Source: Desulfurococcaceae archaeon (GTDB lineage: Archaea > Thermoproteota > Thermoprotei_A > Sulfolobales > Desulfurococcaceae). From it: a stretch of 32,498 nucleotides of DNA. A model generated the notes under the pieces. The model saw nothing but the letters and a program-made list of their open reading frames with translations, was not told the origin of the DNA and did not search any database. The stretch is from assembly GCA_038824035.1 (NCBI GenBank), contig JAWBBW010000016.1, positions 1-32,498 of the forward strand. Reading direction: 5' to 3'. A program made the translations under genes and the position numbers. Positions 4,452 to 31,128 of the stretch are shown here, one piece after another. Positions within the stretch are counted from its first letter, which is position 1; the number at the start of each line of letters is the position of its first letter.

Positions 4452-4648
4452 ACTTAAACCCCTTTTCCCAAAACCTCCTTTCCCTTAAACAGGAAACACC
4501 GTATCATGTACATGGACAAGAATACCGGGCGATACCATGTAATGATTATTCGCCTTGGCAATGGTTTTAAATAAATCCTTGATAACTTGACAACAGGAAT
4601 AATAGCACTGACTACGCCTTTTCATTGACAACTAGGAATTAATATAAG

Positions 4649-4723
4649 TGGGCCCGCGGGGATTTGAACCCCGGACCTCCGCCGTGTGAGGGCGGCGTCC
4701 ATACCGGGCTAGACTACGGGCCC
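4649..4723 (-). tRNA. tRNA-Val (anticodon CAC)
   Basis: Reverse complement GGGCCCGTAGTCTAGCCCGGTATGGACGCCGCCCTCACACGGCGGAGGTCCGGGGTTCAAATCCCCGCGGGCCCA folds as a cloverleaf; anticodon loop CTCACAC; no intron; CCA not encoded. Confidence 0.97.
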
Positions 4724-9475: not shown

Positions 9476-10974
9476 TTGGTTATGCTGAATAATAAATACA
9501 AATATCTATCAGTTGTCTTGATCTCGGTTTCTATATCGATGCTTATAGCCATCTTAGTCAAGGTTCCATCAATCGGAATCGGTGCCGAGATAATAAGCCA
9601 ATGGAGTTCTTATACAGGATTACGCAGTCTTGATGATATCGTAGTTCTCTCGAAACAGATAATATCGCTTACCTTGTTCTTAATGGTGGTGGGGTTTACC
9701 ATATTATCGGAGAGAATGAGGTATTACATAGCGTTTGCAGGCATAGCGATTACAGCGTTCCTGGGAGTGGTCCCTGTTTCCAAGCTCCTGGGTAGTATTG
9801 AGTGGAATCTCGTGCTCTTCTTGACAGGCAGTATGACATTTGCATACGTATTGAGACATATGAATGTCTTCAAATACCTGGCGATCAAAATAGTCGAACT
9901 CTCCAAGGGGTCTTTTATAAGGCTTTTCCTATTAATCACTGCCCTGGCCTGGTTCTTGGCAATGGTAGTGGATGAAGTGACCAGCATTGTCTATATAATG
10001 ATGTTGTTGTTTGAACTACGTAGATTGATCAAGCATGACATCGAGCCATTGATCGTGGCCTGTGTCTTGGCCACAAACACTGGTAGTTTGGCCTTGCCCG
10101 TTGGAAACCCAATTGGGATCTACATGGCATTCACAGCGGGGCTTACTGGAGGGAATTCATGGTTTACGCATTGCCATTATCACTAATAACCTTGTTCATA
10201 ACCCAGGTATCACTGATCATATCTTTCAACAAGTACTTGAGGAAACTGAGTGAGAAATACGACACTGGGAAAACACAGACATTTATCACGAGATTTTACA
10301 CCGAGATGAACCGTGTGAGTAAGATCGGCTTATACCTCGGCTTAGTATTGCTCATAGCATTTCTCGCCACTATTGCAAACATAGATCCCCTGAGCGAGAT
10401 ATTGACACGGATTTTCGAAGTGGAGATAGACCCTCATGCAGCGTTATCTATTGTTCCATTTCTATTCATAGTTATATCGGCAATTGTATATGGGCCGGAG
10501 AAATTAGAAGAGGCGATTCTAAAAGGAGTTGAATGGCCATCAATACTGTTCTTTATTTCGCTATTCATGCTCGGGTACTCGCTGCTATACACCGGGGTTG
10601 CGTCAAAGCTTGCATATACACCAGTGATGATCGGTGGGGCAAACGCGAACTCCATGGGCATGGTGTTGTTGTTCATGTCGGCTATGCTCAGCTCCGTACT
10701 GGACAATCTCAGTGTAATAGTTGCCATGACACCCATAGCCAGCATAGTCAGCAGTTTACTGGGTACACGTAAAGTGTATTGGAGCCTGCTCTATGGAGGT
10801 GTATTGGGCGGTAATTTCACCCCAATAGGCTCCACTGCGAACATTGTCGCCATAGGCATGGCTGAGCGAAGGGGTATGAAAGTGTCCTGGAAACGATGGT
10901 TTTCAATAGCAATGCTACCAGCGGTATTCCAGGTAATCGCGGCTTGTATATACAATTACCTATTCGTTGCCTAA
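9476..10974 (+). pseudogene. ArsB/NhaD/SLC13-type (IT superfamily) permease split by a 1-nt frameshift into 9476..10186 and 10159..10974
   Basis: N-half has IEWNLVLF, VVDEVT and NTGSLALPVGNP; C-half has VEWPSILF, VLDNLS and LGGNFTPIGSTAN. One extra G at 10151-10153 would give a continuous 499-aa ORF (GLTGGEFMVYALP). Confidence 0.75.
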
Positions 10975-19312: not shown

Positions 19313-21277
19313 ATGAGGAAGATATTTCACAGATTAGCCAGCCTCGATGAAGCCATCAGAGCTGTGATCAACGCTATTGACTTGAAACCGCTTGGTGTCG
19401 AGGATATCGATGTTTTCGATGCCATTAACAGGGTTCTCGCAGTCGATGTATATGCCCCAATAGATCACCCGCCTTTCGATAGATCAGAGGTCGATGGCTA
19501 TGCCGTTAGGAGTGAGGACACGGCGTGGGCTGATGAACTATCGCCCATGAGACTTAGGTTAAAGGGGAAAGTGAGGATTGGTGAGTTTCCATCCATAGAG
19601 CTGAATAGTGGCGAGGCTATTGAAATAGCCACGGGCGCCATGATACCACGTGGATGTGACGCAGTTGTAATGGAGGAATATGTTGAAAAAAAGAATGGCG
19701 AAATATTGGTCTACAGGTCGATTGCGCCAGGCGAAAACATAGCTACAGCTGGTAGTGATATATCAATGGGGGATCTCGTGATACCGGCTGGCACTATTCT
19801 GAGAGAAGAACACATAGGGCTACTCGCCGGGCTTGGGTTCTCCAAGATAACTGTCTATAAGAGGCCGAGAATAGCGGTATACTCGATTGGCAACGAGTTG
19901 GCAAAGCGAGGTGAGGTGTTGAGACCCGGCATGGTGTATGACGTGAACGGTGCATTAATAACATCTTATCTAAGGTCTATGGGCGCAGTAGCAGTGTTCA
20001 AGGGGGTTTTACCAGATGATTACGGGGTAATAAGAGATGAGATCTACAGAAGCATTGTGGAATATGACATGGTGGTTACAAGTGGGGGTACTAGTGCAGG
20101 CGAGGAGGACATTATTTACAAGATCTTCGAGGAGATAGGCAATGTCGTAGTCCATGGACTTAGGACAAAACCAGGTAAACCGACAATAATAGCTGTTTCA
20201 TCAGGTAAATTACTAATAGGTTTACCCGGGTTCCCGCTTTCATGTTACATGGTCTTGGTAAGGGTCGTGAGGCCTATTATTGCGAGAATACTGGGTATTA
20301 GGGAAGAGGTCGATACAATACATGTGAAGTTGTCATTAAGTATTAGGAAACACATCGGCAAGACCTGGCTCATACCGGTCATTCTGGTTGAATCACGTGG
20401 AGAACTAGTGGCATACCCTGTATCGATGAGCAGTGGCAGTATATCACCACTGATCTACAGTGATGGATTCATTGAGTTAGATGAAAACGTGGACATAGTG
20501 GAGGAGAACACATTGGTGAGATTTCACCCATTTCGCAACTACATATCTCTGAATAGGCTCAGCATCATAGGTAGCAATGATCCACTGTTATTCGAGATAC
20601 TCAAGGAAACCGGGCTCATACATAGGGCAAGGGTTTTAAACGTAGGTAGCACTGCTGGTTGGAACTCCGTGGTGAGGGGTGAAGCGGATATTGCACCGAC
20701 GCATTTGCTTGACCCCGAAACAAGGAGGTATAATGTTCCTTTCCTTGATAAATACGGCCTAAGGGGCAAAGCTGTCATCATAAGAGGTTATGACAGGCTC
20801 ATAGGCCTGGTAGTAGCGAGGGGTAATCCAAAGAAAATAAAGAGCTTAGAGGACTTGTTGAGAGGCGATATCAGAATGGTTAATAGAAACAGGGGATCAG
20901 GGGCTCGCGTATTCCTAGACATGAAATTAAAAGAGATCTTTGAGAAAAAGGGCATATCCTTTGACAACGTGGAGAGAATTATAAATGGATATACATATGA
21001 GGTCAAGACACATACAGCAGTAGCAGTGGCTGTTAAACAGGGTAGAGCTGATGTGGGGATAGCTGTTGGCTATGTAGCGGATATGTATGGGTTAGATTTC
21101 ATACCACTGACATGGGAGGAGTACGATTTCCTCATACCTATGGATAGGTTGGAGAAGGGATTAGTGGCTATGTTTATCAATCACTTGAGGGATAAGGACC
21201 TATTGGCCAGGTTGATCAGATATCCAGGCTACTATAGGATACCGAGCGATATAGGGCTTGAGAGGCCGTTTGATTAG
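19313..21277 (+). CDS. moeA: Molybdopterin/tungstopterin biosynthesis protein MoeA fused to a C-terminal PBP (LysR-like substrate-binding) domain
   Basis: PPFDRSEVDGYAV, TGAMIP, SGGTSAG, KPGKP, GLPGFP motifs; C-terminal GSND, GSTAG, NRNRGSGAR, GYTYE..TH. Confidence 0.92.
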   Translation: MRKIFHRLASLDEAIRAVINAIDLKPLGVEDIDVFDAINRVLAVDVYAPIDHPPFDRSEVDGYAVRSEDTAWADELSPMRLRLKGKVRIGEFPSIELNSGEAIEIATGAMIPRGCDAVVMEEYVEKKNGEILVYRSIAPGENIATAGSDISMGDLVIPAGTILREEHIGLLAGLGFSKITVYKRPRIAVYSIGNELAKRGEVLRPGMVYDVNGALITSYLRSMGAVAVFKGVLPDDYGVIRDEIYRSIVEYDMVVTSGGTSAGEEDIIYKIFEEIGNVVVHGLRTKPGKPTIIAVSSGKLLIGLPGFPLSCYMVLVRVVRPIIARILGIREEVDTIHVKLSLSIRKHIGKTWLIPVILVESRGELVAYPVSMSSGSISPLIYSDGFIELDENVDIVEENTLVRFHPFRNYISLNRLSIIGSNDPLLFEILKETGLIHRARVLNVGSTAGWNSVVRGEADIAPTHLLDPETRRYNVPFLDKYGLRGKAVIIRGYDRLIGLVVARGNPKKIKSLEDLLRGDIRMVNRNRGSGARVFLDMKLKEIFEKKGISFDNVERIINGYTYEVKTHTAVAVAVKQGRADVGIAVGYVADMYGLDFIPLTWEEYDFLIPMDRLEKGLVAMFINHLRDKDLLARLIRYPGYYRIPSDIGLERPFD

Positions 21278-21726
21278 ATCCCTTGTCTAGCAAGTAGCTT
21301 GTTCACCTTGTAGAGAAACCTGCTGGTTTTCACAGCTTCGATTGAGATTTCCTTGATACCCCCTTTGTACACGATAAAATGCTTTCTACTACATTTCGAA
21401 CCAGTGATCTTGAATACTTCCTCCACCATCCAGTGTAATTGAGTACAATGCATACTGCCATCAATGGTTAATACGGACACTTCTTCATAACCATTACGCG
21501 CGATTATCCCGGCCAACTTGAAACCCAGCATATTCACGTGTTCGGCCTCGGGACATGCCGTTAAAACGATGTAACCCTCTTCAATCAGCTTTTTCACTAT
21601 ATCCGGGTGTTCTAGTTCAATACACCTGCTCGTAACAACGATCTTTTTCTTGCCACAAATGACCCTAGACTTGGCATTAATATCTATTAACCTGGGTAGG
21701 CTATACATGGGCACACCCGGGGTCAC
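21274..21726 (-). CDS. Conserved hypothetical Cys-containing protein, possibly Fe-S binding
   Basis: 150 aa; motifs SRC, TACPEAE and DGSMHCTQL resemble a stand-alone domain often annotated as 4Fe-4S ferredoxin-associated; no canonical CxxCxxC. Confidence 0.5.
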   Translation of the reverse strand: MTPGVPMYSLPRLIDINAKSRVICGKKKIVVTSRCIELEHPDIVKKLIEEGYIVLTACPEAEHVNMLGFKLAGIIARNGYEEVSVLTIDGSMHCTQLHWMVEEVFKITGSKCSRKHFIVYKGGIKEISIEAVKTSRFLYKVNKLLARQGI

Positions 21727-21760: not shown

Positions 21761-22600
21761 ATGGTAATTAACATGACCTCCCTGACTGTGGGCATCTTAC
21801 AGGCCGAGCTTGTTGATAGGCCTCAGTTGAACGTTAATAAGATAATGTTCTATATACAGAGATATTATAAGAATGCCGACATAATAGTGTTGCCCGAATA
21901 CAGCATTATAAATCCATTTGTTATAAAGGACCCGGAGGCTGTATATAGGGAATCCGAGTACATTGCTTCAAGTAGGCATTTGTCAACACTTGCTAAACTA
22001 GCCCATGAATTATCCGTTCACATGGTTGTACATTTCGTCGAGAGAACGGATCAATTCCCATTTACAGTGAGCACGACGGTTTTGTTAACAGACCGCGGTG
22101 AGGCTATACCGGTGTATAGTAAAATACACTTATTCGATGCATATGGATATAGGGAGTCAGAATTCTTAAAACCCGGGGATAAACCGGGCAAGATAATATC
22201 AATCGAAGGCGTTAAGATAGCTTTCACGATATGCTATGACCTTAGATTCCCCGAATTGTTCAGAACATATGCAAACATGGATGTGGATGTCGTGATTGTG
22301 CAAGCTGGCTGGGTTAAAGGGCCGTTGAAAGAAGAGGTATTGGATAAGCTGGCTTGTACCAGGGCCCATGAGAACACGATATACTTGGTGATAGCCGATC
22401 AAACGGGTGATATGTTTGTTGGGAGAAGTGGTGTTTTCAATCCATGGGGTTATAGAGAACTAGATCTCGGCGTAGAGGAGAAATACGTAGAGCACGAGGT
22501 CGATATAGACCAGTTGAAAGTAGTGAGAGAGATTTTGCCAGTGCTCAGGCAGGCCAGAGATAAATGGGAAATAAGATTTATTAAGCAGGGATCTAAGTAA
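21761..22600 (+). CDS. Carbon-nitrogen hydrolase (nitrilase superfamily, Nit1/YbeM-like amidase)
   Basis: Glu-Lys-Cys triad motifs LPEY, YSKIHLFD and ICYDLRFPE; RAHEN. Start at 21761 or 21773. Confidence 0.9.
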   Translation: MVINMTSLTVGILQAELVDRPQLNVNKIMFYIQRYYKNADIIVLPEYSIINPFVIKDPEAVYRESEYIASSRHLSTLAKLAHELSVHMVVHFVERTDQFPFTVSTTVLLTDRGEAIPVYSKIHLFDAYGYRESEFLKPGDKPGKIISIEGVKIAFTICYDLRFPELFRTYANMDVDVVIVQAGWVKGPLKEEVLDKLACTRAHENTIYLVIADQTGDMFVGRSGVFNPWGYRELDLGVEEKYVEHEVDIDQLKVVREILPVLRQARDKWEIRFIKQGSK

Positions 22601-22648
22601 TGGCATCATAGTTTATTCCCCACTAACAACTAGGCAAGGGCTTTGTGA

Positions 22649-23071
22649 ATGGCAAATATAGTGTTAATTACACATGGTAAATACGGCGAAGGCTTAGTGG
22701 ATGCTCTCGCATTACTCCTAGGAGACGAGGCTATAAAAGGTATCCACGTGATTACACTGGGGCCTCTCGATTCTCCTGAATCCCTTTACGAAAAGATCAA
22801 GGATATTGTAAACGGGGTTGATCACGAGAAAGGCGTTTTAATACTAGTAGACCTGTTTGGAGGAACCCCTTCAAGAGTAGCGGCTCAATTGTTGTCAGAG
22901 GGCTTTAACGTCGAAGTTATATCAGGGGTTAATCTCCCAATGTTGGTGGAGATCGTATTACAACGGGATAAGACAGCTAAAGACCTAGTTGAGATTGCTA
23001 TTAGATCAGGCGTAGAAGGCATTGTCAATATTGGTGAAAAGGTGAGAAAAGCCCTGGGTAAAAAAGACTAG
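22649..23071 (+). CDS. PTS EIIA component, mannose/fructose/sorbose family
   Basis: ITHG (phospho-His), DLFGGTP, GVNLPML. Confidence 0.93.
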   Translation: MANIVLITHGKYGEGLVDALALLLGDEAIKGIHVITLGPLDSPESLYEKIKDIVNGVDHEKGVLILVDLFGGTPSRVAAQLLSEGFNVEVISGVNLPMLVEIVLQRDKTAKDLVEIAIRSGVEGIVNIGEKVRKALGKKD

Positions 23072-23075
23072 GATA

Positions 23076-24806
23076 TTAGCCCGCTGACAATATACCCAGT
23101 AGTCCGAGTATTACTCCTATCAAGAAATATATCGCCAGCACCTTGGTTATTGAGAGCCCTTTTCTATACATATAGAATGAGCCTAGTAAGAATATCAACG
23201 GTATTAGCCTCGGCATTATCATGTCTATTGCTGCCTGTATATCTATTGGCTGGGCTTCAGGGACAGCTATTTTCACTGGGACACTCACAGCTATATATGA
23301 AACCCCCAGGGCAGCTATTATCGCCACGGCGATCATCGATGCTATTCTCCTGATCATCTCTATCCTGCCACCCCTTATCACCGAGACCACGTTGAAGCCA
23401 TACCTATAACCCAGTTTCAATAGATACCAGCCAAGGGTCATTACCAAGGGGCACCATAGGATGAAAGCCACTATTGGCCCTAATGCACCGGCTGTCAGTG
23501 TTAACCCAGCTCCTATTCCAAAGGCTATTGGCCTCCACGTGAACCAGAATAAGCCATCTCCAAGGCCTGCCAATGGTCCCATTAAAGACGTCTTCAGAGA
23601 TCTAACAGTTTCCTGGTCTGCACCACCCTCTTCCACTGCCATGTTAACGCCGACTATCATGGCTGTCATCAATGGCTGTGTATTAAAGAACTCGTTGTGA
23701 AGTCTCATCCAGGATTTCAGCTCTTCTGGGTCTTTGCGTAGTTTTCTCTCCACATGGTTCATTACGAAGGCGTATGCAGTGCCTTGCATTCTCTCGTAAT
23801 TCCATGCCCATTGATCTGCAAAGGTTATTTTCAGATACGTCTTTATGAAATCGCTCTTGGTGAATACTTGGCTTGAGCCACTTTGCGGCGTGCTCGACAT
23901 GGTTGGCGGCGCTTGTAGTGCCTCGTAGAGCTCACGCCAGTGGATCACTAGGATCAGGCTCATGACCAGTAGTGTTATGCCAAGTATTGGTAACTTGAGA
24001 TAAGCGGCGAGGACATATCCAAGTATAAACCACGGTAACATGCCAGGGCCATATGTGAGTTTCAGTAACAGGCCTAGACCAACAGCCGGCATTAAGGCAG
24101 CGCCTACTCCAAGCGCTGATAGTATTTTCTGAAGTGCCGGGTTCTCCAATGAAACCCTAATGGTCTCCACGGCCGCCGGGCTCATGCCCAGTGCTGCGAT
24201 AGCCAATATGGGTATCATGTAGACCACAAACCACTGTAAAGAGCCGAGGAACGCTATTACGCCCAACCTCCCTATATTGCCCTTTTCAATCTCCCTATCA
24301 GCCCAGTGCGAGTATATAACACATCCAGCTCTCGCGCCCACGACTTCCAAGTACATGGCTAACATCCCAATAGGTATCGCTATGGCCATTAAAGTGCCGA
24401 GTTCAACGGATGTAACAGCTGTGTAGCCAAGTATCTTGGCAAACATCAATGACGTTATGGTTGCTATCACGGCGTTTGGCGCGGCTGCACCTCCGACGGG
24501 AAAGACGCCCAGATATATTAGCTCAAGCATGGCGCTAAGGGGGAGCGCTACCTGTGGTATGCCCAGTATTAATCCTATTATATTGCCAATTAACAAGGGC
24601 TCTGTTAATCCAAATGCATTATAACCCAGAAAAGTCAGCCCAGCTATGAGTAGCACTATTATTATGCCGAAAAGTTCAAGTGGTGATATCGGCGTAGAGC
24701 CGGTAACACCGGCTTGGGCTTCCACAACTCTTATGGCCACAGCTATGGCCAGGCATATAGTCAATGGTAGAAGTGTCTTGATCACACTATTTCTATGCCC
24801 ATGCAT
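23076..24806 (-). CDS. PTS fused EIIC-EIID permease, mannose family
   Basis: IIC part: EPL..G.IIG, LELIYLG, AIPIG, MPAVG.GLL. P/S/T-rich linker. IID part: WNYERMQG, FFNTQP, KTSLMGPLAGLGDGLFW, IDMIMPRLIPL. Start set at ATG 24806 (GGTGA upstream) instead of 24869. Confidence 0.92.
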   Translation of the reverse strand: MHGHRNSVIKTLLPLTICLAIAVAIRVVEAQAGVTGSTPISPLELFGIIIVLLIAGLTFLGYNAFGLTEPLLIGNIIGLILGIPQVALPLSAMLELIYLGVFPVGGAAAPNAVIATITSLMFAKILGYTAVTSVELGTLMAIAIPIGMLAMYLEVVGARAGCVIYSHWADREIEKGNIGRLGVIAFLGSLQWFVVYMIPILAIAALGMSPAAVETIRVSLENPALQKILSALGVGAALMPAVGLGLLLKLTYGPGMLPWFILGYVLAAYLKLPILGITLLVMSLILVIHWRELYEALQAPPTMSSTPQSGSSQVFTKSDFIKTYLKITFADQWAWNYERMQGTAYAFVMNHVERKLRKDPEELKSWMRLHNEFFNTQPLMTAMIVGVNMAVEEGGADQETVRSLKTSLMGPLAGLGDGLFWFTWRPIAFGIGAGLTLTAGALGPIVAFILWCPLVMTLGWYLLKLGYRYGFNVVSVIRGGRIEMIRRIASMIAVAIIAALGVSYIAVSVPVKIAVPEAQPIDIQAAIDMIMPRLIPLIFLLGSFYMYRKGLSITKVLAIYFLIGVILGLLGILSAG

Positions 24807-24952
24807 GTATTTCACCAGGACTAGGTTTGATATAAAGATGTTTAAATTAATAAACCTGATGTATAACATAACATGATCATATATCGATATGTACTAATAA
24901 TAACTATAAAAACATTGATCAACCTATCACGTATTCATCTTCATCAAGCGGT

Positions 24953-25453
24953 TCAGAGGATTCCTTTTTTCTGAAGTAATTGATAAAAATCCTGGGGTTG
25001 TTCATCTGGTAGCATTTGATATATAACTTTAATCCCCATTTCCCGCATTTCCTTGAAAGCATTGATCTCAGCCGGATCCACGGCGTAGTTCTTGACAACT
25101 ATTACACGCCCCTGTCTCCAAGCGGATTGACCAGCATTAACCCAGTTTATTTTCAAGCCACTTTCCTTTACGACTTTGAGACAATCATTTGCATTGGAAA
25201 CTATGATCATGATATTGACACCTGGCCTATCCCCGGAGCCTTTTCTCAGCTCATCGATGGCCTCTTGTACATGGAATACCCTGACAGTGGTATTGGGAGG
25301 GGCAAGCGCTATTTGCAGTTCCTTTAGAACAGGGTTTCTAGCTATTTTATCATCGACAACCCATATTTCGTTGATATTGTAATGTCTCACCCAGCCAATA
25401 GTCACCTGGCCGTGTATATACCTGTCATCAATCCTGATCAACTTGATCGGCAT
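24953..25453 (-). CDS. PTS EIIB component, mannose family
   Basis: RIDDRYIHGQV (phospho-His), VVDD..A, NAG, QMLPD. Confidence 0.94.
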   Translation of the reverse strand: MPIKLIRIDDRYIHGQVTIGWVRHYNINEIWVVDDKIARNPVLKELQIALAPPNTTVRVFHVQEAIDELRKGSGDRPGVNIMIIVSNANDCLKVVKESGLKINWVNAGQSAWRQGRVIVVKNYAVDPAEINAFKEMREMGIKVIYQMLPDEQPQDFYQLLQKKGIL

Positions 25454-25539
25454 TCAAACCAACTCAGCTTTAGCCAGATATATTATGAGGGAAATGGGGA
25501 TAAATATATCGGGATAACAGGAGTAGCGGTGTATTACCA

Positions 25540-26814
25540 GTGAGAATTGGATATGGTAAATCCATTATAACACCTACAAGCGGTGTTCATAGGCTTGCCG
25601 GTTACTTGAGGAGAAAAGAGCCATCTATGTGTATATTCGATGACATATATGTGAAGACATTATTACTGGAAACGATCGAGGACAATTTACTGGTTTTGGT
25701 CAGTGTCGACTTATTGGCAATAGATAACAACATGTTAGAGGATATGAGAAAGATAAGCAAGGGTTTAATAGGGAATTCACACGTGGTGATCACCGCGACA
25801 CACACTCATTCAGCCCCGATCTCCTTGTTTAAAGACATGCTACCGGGCATGGGCATGGCTGAGTTTGACCCTGAATACTATGAGCATTTCCTCTCCATGT
25901 TCGAGCGCTCATTGTTAAATTCCTATGAAAAACTAGGCAAAGGCGAGTGTTACTCGACAACGATCACGGTGAGCGGGGTAGCTACTAATCGCAATGACCC
26001 GAATACTCCGATCGACGACAAAGCAGTAGTGGTTAAATGCATTACCGGCGACCTAAAAGTGGGTTTATTGAACTACGGAGTTCACCCCACAGTCCTGGGT
26101 CCTAGTAATAAATGTGTGTCAAGGGATTTAGCCGGAGCAATCGAGGACTCATTAAGGAACAACACGGGAATAGAGTTCGTATTTATCAATGGAGCAGCGG
26201 CGGACGTGTCCACGAGGTTCACTAGGATAGAGCAGTCTTACAGCGAGGTCCTAAGGCTTGGATCGCTGTTCGCGAATAGCATTACGAGGTCATTGGGGCA
26301 AGTGCATTGGAGGAAATTAGTGGATGCTCCAATAGCGGTTAAAAAGGAGTCGTTGACCATGAGTGTGGATTCTGAGAAATTCTACAGAATAGCGAGGAAA
26401 CTCTACATTGAAAGGAAACTGGGCGGTGTTGTGGGGAAATTACCTGGTTTAAAGCGCGTTGTGGAGTCGATAGAGGAGGCTATTGAAGCATCTCAGTTGA
26501 TCGTGGAGAAACTGGGCAATATCAAGGAGATCTCTATAGAGGTATCGTCTTACCTGATCGGAAGGGTATTAGGCTTGATTGCTTTACCAGGAGAGGCTTT
26601 ATCGAAGATATCAATGGAATGCAGGGAGATCGCCGGCATAGACACGGTGTTCGCTGGATATGCGAATGGGTATTATGGATATTTCAGCGATAAGGCCGTT
26701 GTGAACACCTACGAGGACGTTATGACATTGTTCACTCATGGAGATGTTGGGAAATTATACGATTTGATCAAAAAACATTGCTCATGGTTAAACGACATGT
26801 CTAGGTCATTATAA
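25540..26814 (+). CDS. Neutral/alkaline ceramidase-like Zn amidohydrolase, unknown substrate
   Basis: LAGY, SVDLL, ATHTHSAP, NR, NYGVHPTVL, NGAAADVS, LPGE, GYANGYYGY motifs; no signal peptide. Confidence 0.78.
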   Translation: MRIGYGKSIITPTSGVHRLAGYLRRKEPSMCIFDDIYVKTLLLETIEDNLLVLVSVDLLAIDNNMLEDMRKISKGLIGNSHVVITATHTHSAPISLFKDMLPGMGMAEFDPEYYEHFLSMFERSLLNSYEKLGKGECYSTTITVSGVATNRNDPNTPIDDKAVVVKCITGDLKVGLLNYGVHPTVLGPSNKCVSRDLAGAIEDSLRNNTGIEFVFINGAAADVSTRFTRIEQSYSEVLRLGSLFANSITRSLGQVHWRKLVDAPIAVKKESLTMSVDSEKFYRIARKLYIERKLGGVVGKLPGLKRVVESIEEAIEASQLIVEKLGNIKEISIEVSSYLIGRVLGLIALPGEALSKISMECREIAGIDTVFAGYANGYYGYFSDKAVVNTYEDVMTLFTHGDVGKLYDLIKKHCSWLNDMSRSL

Positions 26815-27582
26815 TGGTTTTATCACGTTGAAGTATTTCTCGAGATATTTCAAGTTCTTTTCAATGCCGCCGGGCACGTTTGCACTGACCCAGATCTCTG
26901 GCTTGATCCCCCTTTCCACGAGGATCTCCGATGTCCTTATACAAAGCAATTGAAGTATATATGCATGAATGATCGTTGATACAGGAGCTACTTTCACCTC
27001 AACCCCTCTTATTTCGTAAATAGCATCGCCTGGTGGTATCTTGCTGTCTATGACCACGTCTACTACTTCATATAGTCTTTTCCCAAGAGAGTTATCCGGT
27101 TCACCGCTTTTCGAAAACTCCACTGACGTTATACCTATGGTCTTCAAGCCCATTTTCCTGGCCATGAAAGCCATTTCAACGGGTACGGCGTTTCTCCCCG
27201 ATGCGGATACGATTATTAAAACAGAATTTGGTAAAGGATTAATAGATCTCAACAATATCTCCGCGTACCCAGGTAAACGCTCCAGCAAAGTGCTTTTAAC
27301 AGCGCCGTTTAGCAATGAGAGCGATATGTCTAGAATTGGGTAGACCCTGGTCAATCCCCCCGCTCTGTAAAACATCTCTAATGCCATCATCATGGAATGG
27401 CCAGTGCCGAATACATATACTAGGCCGTTTCCCGTGATCGAGTCAGCTATGATCGACGCGGCTTTCTCGATGTTATCTCTCTCCTCTCCAATGATCCTCT
27501 CCATCAATGATATGATCTTTGATGTGAACTCCACATAGGGATCCGCATCGATCACCGTTTTTAGGGGGGATTTATCTCTCAT
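26809..27582 (-). CDS. SIS-domain sugar-phosphate enzyme of the UPF0309 (NagS-like) family
   Basis: FGTGHS, FYRAGGL, LER..GYA, SASGRN, GITS, PPGDA, WVSANVPGG motifs; ATG 27582 overlaps the end of nagA. Confidence 0.82.
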   Translation of the reverse strand: MRDKSPLKTVIDADPYVEFTSKIISLMERIIGEERDNIEKAASIIADSITGNGLVYVFGTGHSMMMALEMFYRAGGLTRVYPILDISLSLLNGAVKSTLLERLPGYAEILLRSINPLPNSVLIIVSASGRNAVPVEMAFMARKMGLKTIGITSVEFSKSGEPDNSLGKRLYEVVDVVIDSKIPPGDAIYEIRGVEVKVAPVSTIIHAYILQLLCIRTSEILVERGIKPEIWVSANVPGGIEKNLKYLEKYFNVIKPL

Positions 27583-28738
27583 ACACAATCACGCCGTTGA
27601 CAATGGTTTTCAAGACATTGAACCCTTCATCCAACACGATGAGATCAGCCCTATAACCCGGTTTTATATCCCCTATCTTGATGTCCAGCTCAATGCTCTT
27701 AGCAGGCGTTAAACTAGCCATTTTAGCAACGTCCACCAGGCTGTATCCCAGTTCCACGATATTTCTAATAGCTCTATCCATGGTGAGAGTGCTTCCGGCT
27801 AGTTTATCTGCGCCCACTAGTTTACACACACCTCTTTCTACACTGATCTTTAAACCACCCAGTTCGTAGACACCATCAGGCATATCAGTAGCGGCTATTG
27901 AATCGGTCACTAGGACAACTCTATCCGGCGAGGCATAATCTATGACCATTTTAACAACCCCTGGGTGGAGATGTATGAAATCCGCTATAAGCTCTACGAA
28001 AACCCCTCGTGCCTGTAAGAGGGAGAGAGCTATCCCTGGTTCCCTGTGATGTATACCTCTCATTGCATTAAATATGTGTGTTGCTTTTGAAATCCCCATT
28101 GCTATTTTGTTTAAGCCTGTTTCATAAGAGGCGTTTGTATGGCCAGCGCTGACAACTATGTTGTTCAACCTGGCATATGTTATTAGCTCGTCTATACCCT
28201 CGATCTCAGGTGCAATGGTTATTTGCCTAATGTTTCTACCAGATACCTCGATGTATTCTTCTAATTCCCTGATAGATGGTTTTCGTATGAATAGAGGATT
28301 CATAGCTCCCGGCATCTCCGGGCTTATATAGGGCCCTTCTAGGTGTAATCCCAGAAGCCTAGCACCATGGCTTGGCCTCCAAGAATCCTTGGCATCTTTA
28401 AAGGCTTTACAGGCCTTTAATAGGACATCGTGTGGTGCCGATACAGTTGTCGCGAGGAAGCCTGTGACACCGTGTCTTGCATAATGTGAAGACATTTCGA
28501 GGAGAACGCTTGGATCAGGGTTCATCGTGATGTCTAAGCCGCTTATACCATGTGTATGTGTATCAATGAGACCAGGTAGTAGTAATTGCCCCTCGAGATC
28601 TATTGATTCGCTAGTAGGCCCTTTGAACGGCTCTTTCCCCACGCTCTTTATAACGCCGTCCTCGATTACAACATATCCATCTTTGATCACCATATTGGGC
28701 GCAATAATTTTACAATGTCTGAACACGAGGACACTCAA
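27572..28738 (-). CDS. nagA: N-acetylglucosamine-6-phosphate deacetylase
   Basis: PGLIDTHTHG, GLHLEGPY, TIAPE, SAGHT, THIFNAM, IADFIHLHP, LVTD, LAGS motifs. Confidence 0.93.
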   Translation of the reverse strand: MSVLVFRHCKIIAPNMVIKDGYVVIEDGVIKSVGKEPFKGPTSESIDLEGQLLLPGLIDTHTHGISGLDITMNPDPSVLLEMSSHYARHGVTGFLATTVSAPHDVLLKACKAFKDAKDSWRPSHGARLLGLHLEGPYISPEMPGAMNPLFIRKPSIRELEEYIEVSGRNIRQITIAPEIEGIDELITYARLNNIVVSAGHTNASYETGLNKIAMGISKATHIFNAMRGIHHREPGIALSLLQARGVFVELIADFIHLHPGVVKMVIDYASPDRVVLVTDSIAATDMPDGVYELGGLKISVERGVCKLVGADKLAGSTLTMDRAIRNIVELGYSLVDVAKMASLTPAKSIELDIKIGDIKPGYRADLIVLDEGFNVLKTIVNGVIVYER

Positions 28739-28827
28739 TTTAAGCCCCGCTTCATCTATATTAATGTCCTAGCTAAAATACGCGAATAGGGTCAAACCCT
28801 CTATACCCATATTATGTTAAAGGTGTT

Positions 28828-29106
28828 TTGCAAGTGAGAACAATTGAGGTCAAGGTGATCAATAGATCGGGCCTACATGCTAGGCCAGCGGCTAGGTTCG
28901 TGCAATTGGCAATGAGGTTCAAATCGAATATAATGATCTGCAAGGAATCCAGTTGCGTTGATGCGAAGAATATTTTAAAGGTGTTATCGCTGGGCGTCGA
29001 TTGCGGTGACCTGGTCATCATAAAGACCAATGGACCAGACGAAGACGAGGCCTTGAAACACCTCTTAGATCTACTTCAGAACGTGTTGCCAAGCGAAGAC
29101 CGGTGA
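28828..29106 (+). CDS. ptsH: PTS phosphocarrier protein HPr
   Basis: GLHARPA (His15 equivalent), VDAKNILKVLSLG, GPDEDEAL. Confidence 0.95.
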   Translation: MQVRTIEVKVINRSGLHARPAARFVQLAMRFKSNIMICKESSCVDAKNILKVLSLGVDCGDLVIIKTNGPDEDEALKHLLDLLQNVLPSEDR

Positions 29107-29112
29107 TCTTAT

Positions 29113-30849
29113 TTGTCAACAGTGTTCAGGGGTATTCCAGTCTCAGAGGGTATAGTTGCCTCAGAGACGATTAAATACGGTTTGTCTACAACGTTACTCG
29201 ATGCCATAGCTGATTGTAAAGCCGGTGAGAATGAGGAGCAGAGATTACTTAATGCACTCGAGGTTTTCAAAGGCTACGTAGAAAAGGTGATGGAGATGGT
29301 AAATGAGAGTGAGAAAGAATTGTTACAGGCATATATCTTGATGGCAGAGGCCCTCGTTAACGAGTCCATTGAGATCGTCAGTAGCGAGGAAATATGTGGG
29401 GAACTCGCGATTAAACGTGTATTCGAGAAATACAGTGCCATGCTGAGGAGTGCTGGGTCAGGTTTGATCGCCATGAGAGAGGCCGATCTAAGGGAGATAG
29501 CTTTGATCCTGGCTAACAACATGATCTCTGGGGATTCTCACCGGGCTATAATGGAATTGAGGGATAAAATAATAGTCTCAGAAGAATTGACGCCGATGGC
29601 TTTCATGGGATTGATCAGGGCTGGCATCAAGGGGCTTGTTACGGTGAAAGGAGGATATACATCGCATATAGCCATATTGGCTAGATCTCGTGGGATACCA
29701 TATGTTGTGATCCCATCGCTCAATATTGAGGAATTTCCGAGGAGTGCAAGGGGTGTTCTCGATGGATTTGAAGGCGCACTCATAGTTAACCCAGATATTG
29801 ATGTGTTTTACCGTTATCAAAGGAAATCAGATATCGTGAATAGACTCATGGATACATTGAGGAGAAGCGCTCTTGGAAAGGCGAAAAGTCTCGATAACAC
29901 GGAGATCGATGTTCTCTGCAATGTAGGTGACTTGGAAGAGGCGAGATCAGCGTTGATGCAGGGCTGTGATGGCATTGGCGTGTTCAGGGTCGAGTTTCTC
30001 TATGTATCTGGCTCATTGCCTAGTGAGAATGCGTTGTTCAACGCGTTCGCTAAGATCGCCCAGATATATGATATGAAACCCGTTGTCATAAGAGCCCCCG
30101 ATCTCGGCGCGGATAAGCCATTGCCATTTTTTAGGATAAGGGAGGAAAATCCCGCTCTGGGCTTACGTGGGATCAGGCTGTTACTAGAATATAGAGAGGA
30201 GTTGCTCAAACCCTTTCTCAGGGCTTTTCTCAGGGCATTATCTAGCCATGGTAATCTGAGATTACTAATACCCATGGTAACTAAGCTGGGCGAGGTATAT
30301 GATTTCATAAATATCTTGGAGAACACGGCATCCGAGATTATAGGCGTTGATGTATTGAATAAATTGGCTATCGGAGTGATGATCGAGACGCCTGCTGCAG
30401 CGCTAATTATCGACAAGTTCGCCGAAATACCGTTCATAAGGTTTGCAAGTCTTGGAACAAATGACCTTGTCCAGTATACGCTGGCTGTTGATAGGAATAA
30501 TCCTAGAATAAGTTATCTATACAATGAACTAGAGCCATCTGTTCTAAGGCTTATTAAGCAAACAGTGGATTTGGCTGGTAAAAAAGGCTTACACCTGGAG
30601 ATATGTGGTGAAATGGCAAGTAGGCCCATGGCCATACCGGTTATCCTATCACTAGGCATTAGGACGCTTAGTGTAAACCCTAGATATGTTGGTATCGTGA
30701 AATACCTCGTAAACAACATCAATATATCCCGTATCTCGGAGAACCTGGCAACAGTCCTGGATGTGGAGGATTCTAGCAAGGTATTGGAGAAAGTAAGGGA
30801 GATTTACAAGGAGCATGGATTGATCGATATACTCGAGCTATATGGCTAG
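29113..30849 (+). CDS. ptsI: PEP-protein phosphotransferase, PTS enzyme I
   Basis: GGYTSHIAILARS (phospho-His), GIGVFRVEF, DLGADK, EENPALGLRGIR, MIETPAA, SLGTNDLVQY.LAVDR, ICGEMA. Confidence 0.95.
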   Translation: MSTVFRGIPVSEGIVASETIKYGLSTTLLDAIADCKAGENEEQRLLNALEVFKGYVEKVMEMVNESEKELLQAYILMAEALVNESIEIVSSEEICGELAIKRVFEKYSAMLRSAGSGLIAMREADLREIALILANNMISGDSHRAIMELRDKIIVSEELTPMAFMGLIRAGIKGLVTVKGGYTSHIAILARSRGIPYVVIPSLNIEEFPRSARGVLDGFEGALIVNPDIDVFYRYQRKSDIVNRLMDTLRRSALGKAKSLDNTEIDVLCNVGDLEEARSALMQGCDGIGVFRVEFLYVSGSLPSENALFNAFAKIAQIYDMKPVVIRAPDLGADKPLPFFRIREENPALGLRGIRLLLEYREELLKPFLRAFLRALSSHGNLRLLIPMVTKLGEVYDFINILENTASEIIGVDVLNKLAIGVMIETPAAALIIDKFAEIPFIRFASLGTNDLVQYTLAVDRNNPRISYLYNELEPSVLRLIKQTVDLAGKKGLHLEICGEMASRPMAIPVILSLGIRTLSVNPRYVGIVKYLVNNINISRISENLATVLDVEDSSKVLEKVREIYKEHGLIDILELYG

Positions 30850-30941
30850 CTCGATCTCTTCATGATCAGGCTCGATGATCCAATTAGCTACTGGCTACTG
30901 AGGTATTGCTTAATAACCGGCATATAATTACTATCTAAATG

Positions 30942-31001
30942 GCAGATGAGGAAGAGTTGGCGAAGCGATTAAATGAGCGATCACAGCCTCCTCGCCGATG
31001 C
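30942..31001 (+). ncRNA. Candidate C/D box 2'-O-methylation guide sRNA
   Basis: Box C-like ATGAGGA 30946-30952; 12-nt spacer; D'-like GCGA 30965-30968; C'-like ATGAGCG 30973-30979; D-like CCGA 30995-30998; terminal GCA/TGC stem; TATA-like ATATAATTA at 30922-30930. Boxes are degenerate. Confidence 0.45.
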
Positions 31002-31043
31002 AATGTATAAAATCCTTTCACATAGATGATATATCATGACAAG

Positions 31044-31128
31044 GCGGGGGTGCCCGAGCCTGGTCAAAGGGGTCGGGCTCAGAACCCGATGGCGTAGGCC
31101 TGCGTGGGTTCAAATCCCACCCCCCGCA
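31044..31128 (+). tRNA. tRNA-Leu (anticodon CAG)
   Basis: GCGGGGG acceptor stem; anticodon arm TCGGG-CTCAGAA-CCCGA; long variable arm; GTGGG-TTCAAAT-CCCAC T-arm; discriminator A; no encoded CCA; TATAAAA at about 31006. Confidence 0.97.

Follow-up and report, generated by a model that had tools for sequence, protein, structure and literature searches.

A putative archaeal-lineage mannose-family PEP:sugar phosphotransferase system, associated with amino-sugar genes on an apparently recently moved island of a Desulfurococcaceae archaeon

Contig JAWBBW010000016.1 of a Desulfurococcaceae archaeon (assembly GCA_038824035.1), whose entire length of 32,498 nt is called the window below, carries at 22649–30849 a gene cluster that we read as a complete, working-looking mannose-family phosphoenolpyruvate (PEP):sugar phosphotransferase system (PTS), which would be wired to amino-sugar catabolism, belong to an archaeal lineage of such systems and lie on a recently moved island. 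The probability of this reading is put at about 0.72. The cluster extends exactly from the start of EIIA to the stop of enzyme I (EI). Its genes were identified from the list of open reading frames and with the Pfam and NCBIfam profile libraries, and the phospho-sites were taken from alignments to solved structures. A sequence-only reading of the same DNA had placed EI, HPr, EIIA, EIIB and EIIC-D in one 8.2-kb locus, with four intact phospho-histidine motifs and no frameshift. All five components were recovered there (Table 1), the four histidines were located by the structure alignments, and the eight frames of the cluster are all open, with no internal stop or frameshift. Three genes of the locus were additional to that listing, those for a ceramidase-like protein, a SIS_2/UPF0309 protein and NagA. 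The occurrence of phosphotransfer, the identity of the transported sugar and the functions of the SIS protein and of the amidase are what we infer for this set of genes.

Table 1. Coordinates of the PTS cluster and of other features of the window
Feature	Position	Strand	Details
EIIA-Man	22649..23071	+	140 aa, phospho-His9; PF03610, 84.6 bits
Single-chain EIIC-EIID permease	23076..24869	-	597 aa; PF03609 (EII-Sor/IIC) residues 69-305; PF03613 (EIID-AGA) residues 337-594
EIIB, mannose/sorbose family	24953..25453	-	166 aa, phospho-His14; PF03830, 132.3 bits
Ceramidase-like protein	25540..26814	+	424 aa; PF04734, 54.9 bits, residues 2-200
SIS_2/UPF0309 protein, NagS-like	26809..27588	-	259 aa; PF13580, 153.6 bits; NF002805, 281 bits
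NagA, N-acetylglucosamine-6-phosphate deacetylase	27572..28738	-	388 aa; TIGR00221, 339.2 bits vs equivalog cut-off 225.65
HPr	28828..29106	+	92 aa from TTG, phospho-His17; PF00381, 97.2 bits vs 23; TIGR01003, 83.7 vs 47.9
Enzyme I	29113..30849	+	578 aa from TTG, phospho-His185, Cys498; TIGR01417, 376.8 bits vs 341.7
Carbon-nitrogen hydrolase (nitrilase family), left neighbour of island	21761..22600	+	PF00795, 112 bits
tRNA-Leu(CAG), right neighbour of variable slot	31044..31128	+	ARAGORN
tRNA-Val	4648-4723		18 kb away from locus
Stretch recurring in genome G015, in pieces, circularly permuted	22140..31039		G015 contigs C19, C30, C14

All four Pfam domains of the mannose family (EIIA-man, PTSIIB_sorb, EII-Sor and EIID-AGA) are present, among them IID, the hallmark of the family. 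For EIIA, 124 residues could be aligned to E. coli IIA-Man (1pdo, 1vrc), and its His9 corresponds to the active histidine in the ITHG/GTHG motif of that protein. His14 of EIIB lies in IHGQV, and the stretch RIDDRYIHGQV aligned with RIDDRLIHGQV of E. coli IIB-Man (1vsq_C); the phospho-histidines of the E. coli proteins are His10 of IIA-Man and His175 of IIAB-Man. The N-terminal half of the permease matched ManY and its C-terminal half ManZ in the structure of the E. coli transporter (6k1h), and its IIC and IID domains scored 125.9 and 247.1 bits, above the Pfam gathering scores. His17 of HPr, in GLHARPA, was aligned to His15 of 3le1, and Asn48 stands at the position of the regulatory Ser46 of that structure, which places the protein outside the HprK-regulated (Firmicute) type, of which a serine at position 46 is presumably the mark. 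EI has the three domains PF05524, PF00391 and PF02896 in this order, and its His185 (in GGYTSH) and Cys498 (in CGEMA) were aligned to His190 and Cys503 of 2hro_A. A profile search of the genome found no second EI, HPr or EIID and no EIIC-GAT, thus the cluster appears to be a single self-contained PTS; the sole other PEP-utiliser of the genome is an 862-aa PpsA-like frame on contig C1.

In the proposed mechanism, PEP would phosphorylate EI at His185, and the phosphoryl group would pass in turn to His17 of HPr, His9 of EIIA and His14 of EIIB, and from EIIB to the sugar during its passage through the single-chain EIIC-EIID permease. The product would most likely be an N-acetylhexosamine 6-phosphate (GlcNAc in the first place, GalNAc or ManNAc being possible), which NagA would deacetylate. 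The NagS-like SIS protein may then turn the amino-sugar phosphate into a ketose phosphate, in place of NagB, and the ketose phosphate could enter glycolysis by means of PfkB-type kinases, so that PEP would be regenerated. The ceramidase-like amidase would belong to the same selected module and probably strips an acyl group outside the range of NagA. Since a NagA that scores at equivalog level sits in the cluster, an N-acetylhexosamine is the most likely substrate, and the transported sugar is probably of this kind; to this extent the N-acetylhexosamine PTS proposed by the sequence-only reading is retained, and the identity of the sugar is still given conditionally. Naming the sugar from NCBIfam equivalogs was tried and dropped, all scores being below cut-off. 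NagB (PF01182) was not found in the genome, which is 99.67% complete. Apart from this protein, the SIS proteins of the genome are two GlmS-like frames of 611 and 616 aa, one frame of 201 aa and a weakly matching one of 331 aa; at least six PfkB kinases are encoded.

The best solved relative of the SIS protein is SCO4393/NagS of Streptomyces coelicolor (9eol, E 1.8e-44), with about 37% identity by hand count. The NagS residues H53, S54, R64, E94, S119, S121, D179 and N228 are kept and S91 is replaced by T; the kept residues include H53, R64, E94 and D179, the four described as essential in passages of PMC12680351. The protein thus resembles NagS in its UPF0309/SIS_2 family, in all four essential residues and in the position of its gene next to nagA. 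According to the same passages, NagS is a GlcNAc-6P dehydratase, Streptomyces NagA accepts its product, and NagS orthology is set at 58.7% identity or more, within Streptomycetaceae only and with dmdR1 as a neighbour (PMC12680351). With its lower identity, its archaeal host and no dmdR1 neighbour, the SIS protein of the window lies outside this definition, therefore it was filed as UPF0309/SIS_2 and not as NagS.

The ceramidase-like protein, encoded by a single-copy gene in the genome, was modelled with a pLDDT of 85 and a pTM of 0.87. By Foldseek, the whole length of the model matched human and Pseudomonas neutral ceramidases (4wgk, 2zws; TMq 0.76–0.78, E ~1e-25), and PF04734 was matched above its threshold of 32.1 bits, so both the family and the fold of the catalytic domain were found. 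The C-terminal immunoglobulin-like domain is lacking (424 aa compared with 630–688 aa in the solved proteins; TMt 0.49–0.53), and the full-length equivalog NF041649 was matched with 24 bits against a cut-off of 1200. The motifs THTHS, NRxDP, HPTVL, PxE and GYxxxYxxY are invariant in eight archaeal homologues, and so are H88, H90, R151, H182, E352, Y374, Y378, Y381 and Y391. THTHS aligned with GTHTHS of 4wgk; the remaining invariant residues are presumed to belong to the ceramidase site. Judged from the model, the protein is probably a zinc amidase that consists of a stand-alone catalytic domain. Its gene accompanies Man-type EII genes in six other loci (L063, L065, L098, L099, L100 and L101) and also in genome G015.

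Several observations weigh against the reading given above. The EII parts stayed below the NCBIfam subfamily cut-offs, both the soluble components (TIGR00824, 84.8 vs 98.35 bits; TIGR00854, 108.1 vs 163.6) and the permease (TIGR00822, 82 vs 339.85; TIGR00828, 179.5 vs 292.75), and the sugar-specific equivalogs were missed as well (AgaF, 97.5 vs 130; PRK09855, 165.6 vs 400; AgaE, 131.9 vs 500; AgaW, 99.3 vs 300; PRK15088, 85.7 and 101.1 vs 400), by which measure the EII parts would be divergent members of the mannose family. HPr and EI both have TTG as start codon and the start of the permease is ambiguous, as the ATG at 24869 gives 597 aa and the ATG at 24806 gives 576 aa, the length of the 96% identical protein P0121. 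By eye, AT-rich boxes are visible in the promoter regions, to which no weight is given. No glycoside hydrolase of family GH18 or GH20 was found in the genome, so the host would have to scavenge amino sugars freed by other organisms, and chitin breakdown by the host itself, which had been considered, was dropped for this reason. The sole characterised relative of the SIS protein is a GlcNAc-6P dehydratase and not a deaminase, and three NagS homologues from outside Streptomycetaceae, with 26–36% identity, had no dehydratase activity according to passages of PMC12680351. Because NagS homologues of about 30% identity outside that family lack dehydratase activity, the protein of the window is proposed, by comparison, to be an amino-sugar-6-phosphate deaminase/isomerase. 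Concerning the DNA itself, no independent contig spans the right junction of the cluster, from EI to tRNA-Leu, as they break at the tRNA, and none spans the 784-nt part of EI that is missing in G015; gaps in cover were not counted as evidence. The segment from 31129 to the contig end at 32498 has no Pfam match and no counterpart after tRNA-Leu in congeners; it represents either one more variable stretch or the border of a further insertion. No RNA run is listed for the stretch, which is uninformative in either direction.

Part of these data could also be explained if the same functional PTS served another substrate, such as a free hexosamine, a longer or different N-acyl sugar, or a glycated amine of the fructoselysine/glucoselysine type, with the amidase and the SIS protein performing the key steps and NagA being promiscuous. 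In favour of this, no EII part reaches a specific equivalog cut-off, the source name of a fused homologue with 28% identity (P0158) is fructoselysine/glucoselysine IID, and Streptomyces NagA accepts the NagS product, as given in passages of PMC12680351. The ceramidase-like gene adds to this, since its co-occurrence with Man-type EII genes in the six other loci and in G015, together with purifying selection on it, points to an amide bond other than that cleaved by NagA. Against this explanation stand the 339 bits of NagA on the GlcNAc-6P deacetylase equivalog model, the linkage of NagA to the PTS, seen in the clusters of Desulfurococcaceae as well as in those of Thermofilum, and the best specific matches of EIIA, IIC and IID, which are GalNAc/GalN components even though below cut-off. 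A substrate of another kind is therefore considered unlikely, though well worth keeping in mind, and an N-acetylhexosamine remains the preferred assignment.

The affiliation of the cluster was approached through the permease and EI. A search of 5.8 billion proteins yielded 41 proteins (328–1045 aa range) containing both IIC and IID. Ten of these carried an organism name, and all ten were archaeal: Desulfurococcaceae, Thermofilaceae, Sulfolobales, Thermoprotei, Desulfurococcus sp., Thermococcus aggregans, Njordarchaeales, Thermofilum sp., Thermofilum pendens (38% identity) and Infirmifilum. In the IID tree, which comprised 110 rows after the fragments P0164 and P0206 were left out and for which no root was inferred, 31 fused and two short rows, including the window and all ten named archaeal proteins, were on one side of a branch with an SH-aLRT of 98. 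Two subgroups are separated within this archaeal side, one of Desulfurococcaceae/Thermococcus and the other of Thermofilum/Njordarchaeales. Unfused IID proteins were at most 40% identical to that of the window, with the exception of a 289-aa row at 66%, which falls within the archaeal group and is possibly a fragment. The EI tree was built from 72 rows, also without inference of the root (four short rows were removed first, and 71 near-duplicates were then dropped from 143). The window was in a group of 44 rows with an SH-aLRT of 99, far from the bacterial rows, and the genome-coded rows of this group all came from families f1, f7 and f5 of the host's order. The EI of the window was 77% and 51–55% identical to the nearest rows of the archaeal group and at most 38% identical to rows on the bacterial side; in the EI contig scan, at least ten Clostridia loci were found at 29–31% identity among the matches listed. 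Most EI proteins of the class are thus in a group of their own, and the permease fusion is almost confined to archaea. On these sequence comparisons, the cluster can be assigned to an archaeal lineage of mannose-family PTS that is marked by the IIC-IID fusion and includes T. pendens. It is to be mentioned that the fused proteins of Thermococcus aggregans (P0132, 51% identity, from a complete genome) and of a Njordarchaeales (Asgard) metagenome-assembled genome (P0138, 37%) extend the archaeal Man-type PTS beyond Thermoproteota.

As the PTS is overwhelmingly bacterial and is treated as a bacterial invention, general knowledge would favour a recent direct transfer from a thermophilic bacterium such as a Firmicute, and independent imports of this kind seem to occur: the EI proteins of G154, G050 and G085 (loci L025, L024 and L023) were placed among bacterial rows, that of G085 reaching 630 bits on a bacterial-trained model, which suggests that these three are separate bacterial imports. 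For the window this scenario is very improbable. Its EI is far closer to archaeal-group rows than to any bacterial-side row, the 40% limit separates its IID half from the unfused proteins (save the 289-aa row), the fusion and the accessory genes are common to Thermofilum, and the GC content of the island equals that of the neighbouring archaeal genes. Since the gene set and the fusion are shared with T. pendens and both EI and IID fall into archaeal groupings, other archaea and not Firmicutes would be the proximate source, and we regard the island as horizontally acquired from them. The horizontal acquisition supposed by the sequence-only reading is accordingly upheld by the trees and the low identity of unfused IID proteins, and its Firmicute donor is unsupported.

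The sequence-only reading had also noted that novelty would be lowered if the locus proved to be the already described cluster of Thermofilum. The permease of genome G484 is 100% identical to a protein that NCBI names T. pendens, and its locus (L098) has the order EI, NagA, GlmS-like, ceramidase-like, GFO-type oxidoreductase, EIIB, EIIA, DUF7916, EIICD and HAD phosphatase. Similar to the window, it has a fused EIIC-EIID (534 aa), separate EIIA and EIIB, and EI, NagA and the ceramidase-like gene in one locus, and it falls on the same side of the IID tree. The identities between the two are 38% for EI, 50% for NagA, 32% for the amidase, 47% for EIIB, 33% for EIIA and 38% for EIICD. In contrast to the window, T. 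pendens belongs to another archaeal order, the local GC content is 0.596 as opposed to 0.449, a GlmS-like gene replaces the SIS_2 gene, and a GFO/IDH/MocA oxidoreductase, a DUF7916 protein and a HAD phosphatase are added. HPr, present in the window, was not seen within the 20 kb examined there, and the permease of the window is about 40–60 residues longer at the N terminus. The two loci are therefore not the same but homologous, at 32–50% identity and with a common IIC-IID fusion, which lowers the novelty of the present one: it widens a known rarity as a relative of the T. pendens cluster and does not found a new kind. Full-length GlmS-like genes (GATase and two SIS domains) were also seen within PTS/NagA clusters at L058–L060 (genus g31), beside L098; GlmS is known as a biosynthetic enzyme and is odd inside such clusters.

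Among bacterial systems, the Aga/Gam locus of E. coli (cf. PMC3668189), a GalNAc/GalN PTS with the deacetylase AgaA and the deaminase/isomerase AgaS, resembles the window in that a mannose-family EII, a SIS-domain enzyme and a deacetylase of the NagA type are encoded together. Of the specific NCBIfam models, those for components of this system are matched best by EIIA, IIC and IID, all far below cut-off. The window differs in that its SIS protein is SIS_2/UPF0309 and not AgaS, IIC and IID are fused, the ceramidase-like amidase is added, and neither a tagatose-bisphosphate aldolase gene nor a regulator is present in the locus. With respect to E. coli ManXYZ, EIIA and EIIB aligned to the domains of ManX with the active histidines matched; in E. 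coli, however, ManX combines IIA with IIB, and the permease is made up of the separate chains ManY and ManZ, whereas in the window IIC and IID form one chain and IIA and IIB are separate. The fructose PTS of Haloferax volcanii, the characterised archaeal PTS in passages of PMC12525153, resembles the window in having bacterial-type EI, HPr and EII in an archaeon, but it belongs to the fructose family and to a halophilic euryarchaeon; the haloarchaeal HPr equivalog NF041319 gave 70 bits on the HPr of the window as against a cut-off of 140.

In passages of reviews, the haloarchaeal fructose system is the only archaeal PTS cited (PMC12525153, PMC12965863), and the searched passages of two others contained nothing on archaeal PTS (PMC8100219, PMC11212667). 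The PTS of T. pendens is mentioned in single lines in the parts seen of PMC2678158 and PMC3189178, and a 'PTS transporter' is mentioned for T. adornatum in a passage of PMC6965361. No description of a Desulfurococcaceae PTS and no biochemistry of a crenarchaeal PTS was found in a literature search that lay outside subscription journals and supplements, which agrees with the sequence-only reading, to which no biochemically characterised crenarchaeal PTS was known. The compact protein set of the window should be heat-stable and would suit a first biochemical test of a crenarchaeal PTS. The locus also offers a natural context for the function of UPF0309/NagS-like proteins and of short ceramidase-like amidases, each with a single assigned case.

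The distribution of PTS genes was surveyed in 351 genomes of the host's class, EI being counted above the TIGR01417 cut-off. EI was present in 23 genomes, namely in 16 of the 63 of the host family, in 4 of the 14 of family f7, and in one each of f9, f5 and f16; in the host genus it occurred in 6 of 17 genomes, and one more (G016) had a broken EI. The IID domain was found in 8 of the 351 genomes, always in a frame of 328–616 aa, and Gat/Asc-type EIIC in 16. A sample of 401 genomes of the phylum had IID in eight, six of which were of one genus in family f39. The complete eight-gene set was also present in G070, a genome of another family, with a 67.5% identical permease; G157 had the set without the amidase, and the form in G068 is divergent, its 11.4-kb contig showing neither NagA nor the SIS gene. 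Of 18 loci examined in relatives, 8 had NagA and SIS_2 genes as neighbours, and the PTS next to these was of the Man type or of the Gat type. The locus and its relatives show that the PTS recurs in hot-spring Desulfurococcaceae as a trait under selection and is no one-off. The second type of PTS consists of EIIA_2, Lac-type IIB and EIIC-GAT and was seen in 7 of 16 congeners, not in the genome of the window; G015 and G154 had both types. Loci of this Gat type (L053, L054, L055, L057 and L064) often have NagA and the same SIS_2 gene next to them. The group thus has two PTS types in circulation, of which the Man type, to which the window belongs, is the rarer.

The host genome measures 1.33 Mb in 29 contigs, of which the window is one entire contig. 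The named near-relatives of EI and EIICD were Desulfurococcaceae archaeon, Thermosphaera sp., Desulfurococcus sp., Staphylothermus sp. and Sulfolobales archaeon metagenome-assembled genomes, and hot-spring metagenomes carry this DNA, more than half of the sampled words being found in three studies. The host can thus be taken as an uncultured hot-spring Desulfurococcaceae archaeon; host taxonomy was among the checks that the sequence-only reading had called for, as was contig integrity. The flanks are archaeal, as had been stated: they encode Hel308 with the archaeal helicase domain 4, a short XPF, a class-I HMG-CoA reductase and a MoeA-PBP fusion, in addition to the two tRNAs (Table 1). The order Hel308, MoeA, carbon-nitrogen hydrolase, variable slot and tRNA-Leu is colinear in nine congeners at 53–63% protein identity. 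In these, hydrolase orthologues with 53–60% identity directly follow MoeA, and tRNA-Leu (92–99% identity) follows the hydrolase gene at a distance of 0.95–3.9 kb, with its orientation unchanged. The slot contains no PTS genes in any of the nine, and in the window the PTS cluster fills exactly the same slot. In most of the nine it is occupied by a gene of about 1 kb, a paralogue of which lies on contig C17 of the host, and the genes 3′ of tRNA-Leu in four of these congeners match the end of contig C13. Marking the island by base composition was abandoned, as its GC content (0.449) is close to that of the remainder of the window (0.441), the genome having 0.415.

An assembly chimera or a mis-binned bacterial contig could be suspected in a 29-contig genome in which the window is a whole contig and independent contigs end at the tRNA. 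The cluster lies, however, between two genes that are neighbours in the nine congeners, its left junction, between the hydrolase gene and EIIA, is crossed by contigs of two studies (X1 record 2, X3 record 18), and the closest homologues of all its parts are archaeal. In the copy of genome G015, described below, the hydrolase/EIIA join is preserved, and so is the sequence that runs from EI and ends 5 nt short of the tRNA. Considering the synteny, the crossed left junction and the right junction kept in G015, such an artefact is extremely improbable, and the contig was found sound at the left junction and in synteny.

Recent movement of the island is indicated by G015, a 70-contig assembly of a congener whose core proteins are 56–60% identical to those of the window, its core genes being about 65–74% identical in DNA. 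The window stretch from 22140 to 31039 recurs there in a circularly permuted form, with DNA identities of 92% for 22140–25481 (C19), 94% for 25494–27544, 91% for 27594–29650 and 84% for 30434–31039. The pieces lie at C19:47711-51627, C30:51567-53618 and C14:11808-13860 (loci L086, L102 and L087). The other 13 matches on these contigs comprised ten at 65.5–74.0% and three short overlapping ones at 75–87.5%. In G015, position 31039 of the window, before the tRNA, is joined straight to 22140, in the middle of the hydrolase gene, the last 460 nt of which were carried along; with frame breaks and a dN/dS of 0.68, this piece looks like a decaying passenger. The join and the passenger point to a transfer by way of a circular or tandem form from a donor lineage in which the island lay beside the hydrolase gene, and we therefore conclude, as far as these sequences indicate, that the island recently moved between two deeply diverged congeners. 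A tRNA-Arg is found about 390 nt before the amidase/SIS piece in G015 (L102). In 9 of the 10 other loci scanned there was no tRNA near the locus, hence tRNA adjacency is not general. No integrase domain was found in the window, and in a search for attachment-site-like direct repeats the longest had 36 nt (75% identity), none being situated at the island ends.

The dS between the window and the G015 copies is 0.18–0.26, and the dN/dS values are 0.21 for EIIA, 0.10 for EIICD, 0.04 for EIIB, 0.16 for the amidase, 0.125 for the SIS gene and 0.127 for NagA. Purifying selection acts on all six of these genes. HPr has a dN/dS of 0.86 in G015, and the island EI of that genome is interrupted (29651–30433 has no counterpart; 784-nt part) and has indels. 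As the EI of G016 is also broken, PTS genes do decay in the genus, and the cluster could accordingly be a signalling-only or decaying PTS that has lost sugar transport. This is highly improbable for the window, where each of the eight frames is open throughout and the catalytic residues are preserved, and where the permease and EIIB are the most constrained proteins. G015 possesses a second, intact EI beside its Gat-type PTS, which can serve the Man-type EII, and the decay of the island EI and HPr in that genome is explained by this redundancy. The two genomes would thereby offer a clean example of an island that was recently exchanged by two archaeal lineages of deep divergence, after which the redundant general PTS proteins decayed.

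A wider and more tentative interpretation, to which we give a minority chance somewhat above that of a different substrate, is that the PTS with a fused IICD is a distinct catabolic module which arose or was remade in archaea for an N-acylated amino sugar, with a chemistry other than the textbook NagA/NagB route. Its partners would be NagA, the stand-alone amidase and the NagS-like SIS enzyme (GlmS-like in Thermofilum). The UPF0309 enzyme might be the missing deaminase, or a true HexNAc-6P dehydratase acting with NagA, and the amidase might remove a non-acetyl acyl group. Under the same tentative interpretation, the module would spread as an integrase-less, circularisable cassette among Desulfurococcaceae, Thermofilaceae, Thermococcus and Njordarchaeales; the ability to circularise is suggested by the 31039–22140 join in G015.

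Three minor features of the window lie outside the cluster. On the minus strand, 21274–21726 holds a 150-aa frame with no family match, situated in the gap of about 480 nt between MoeA and the hydrolase gene, a gap of about 50–140 nt in the nine congeners. Upstream of 21857, a contig of run X3 departs from the window and one of X2 starts at that point, thus strains differ near this position. Finally, the overlapping plus-strand frames at 9476–10186 and 10159–10974 matched positions 5–158 and 163–333, the first and the second half, of the CitMHS citrate-transporter profile, and they represent either a transporter gene that is split or frameshifted or an error of sequencing.

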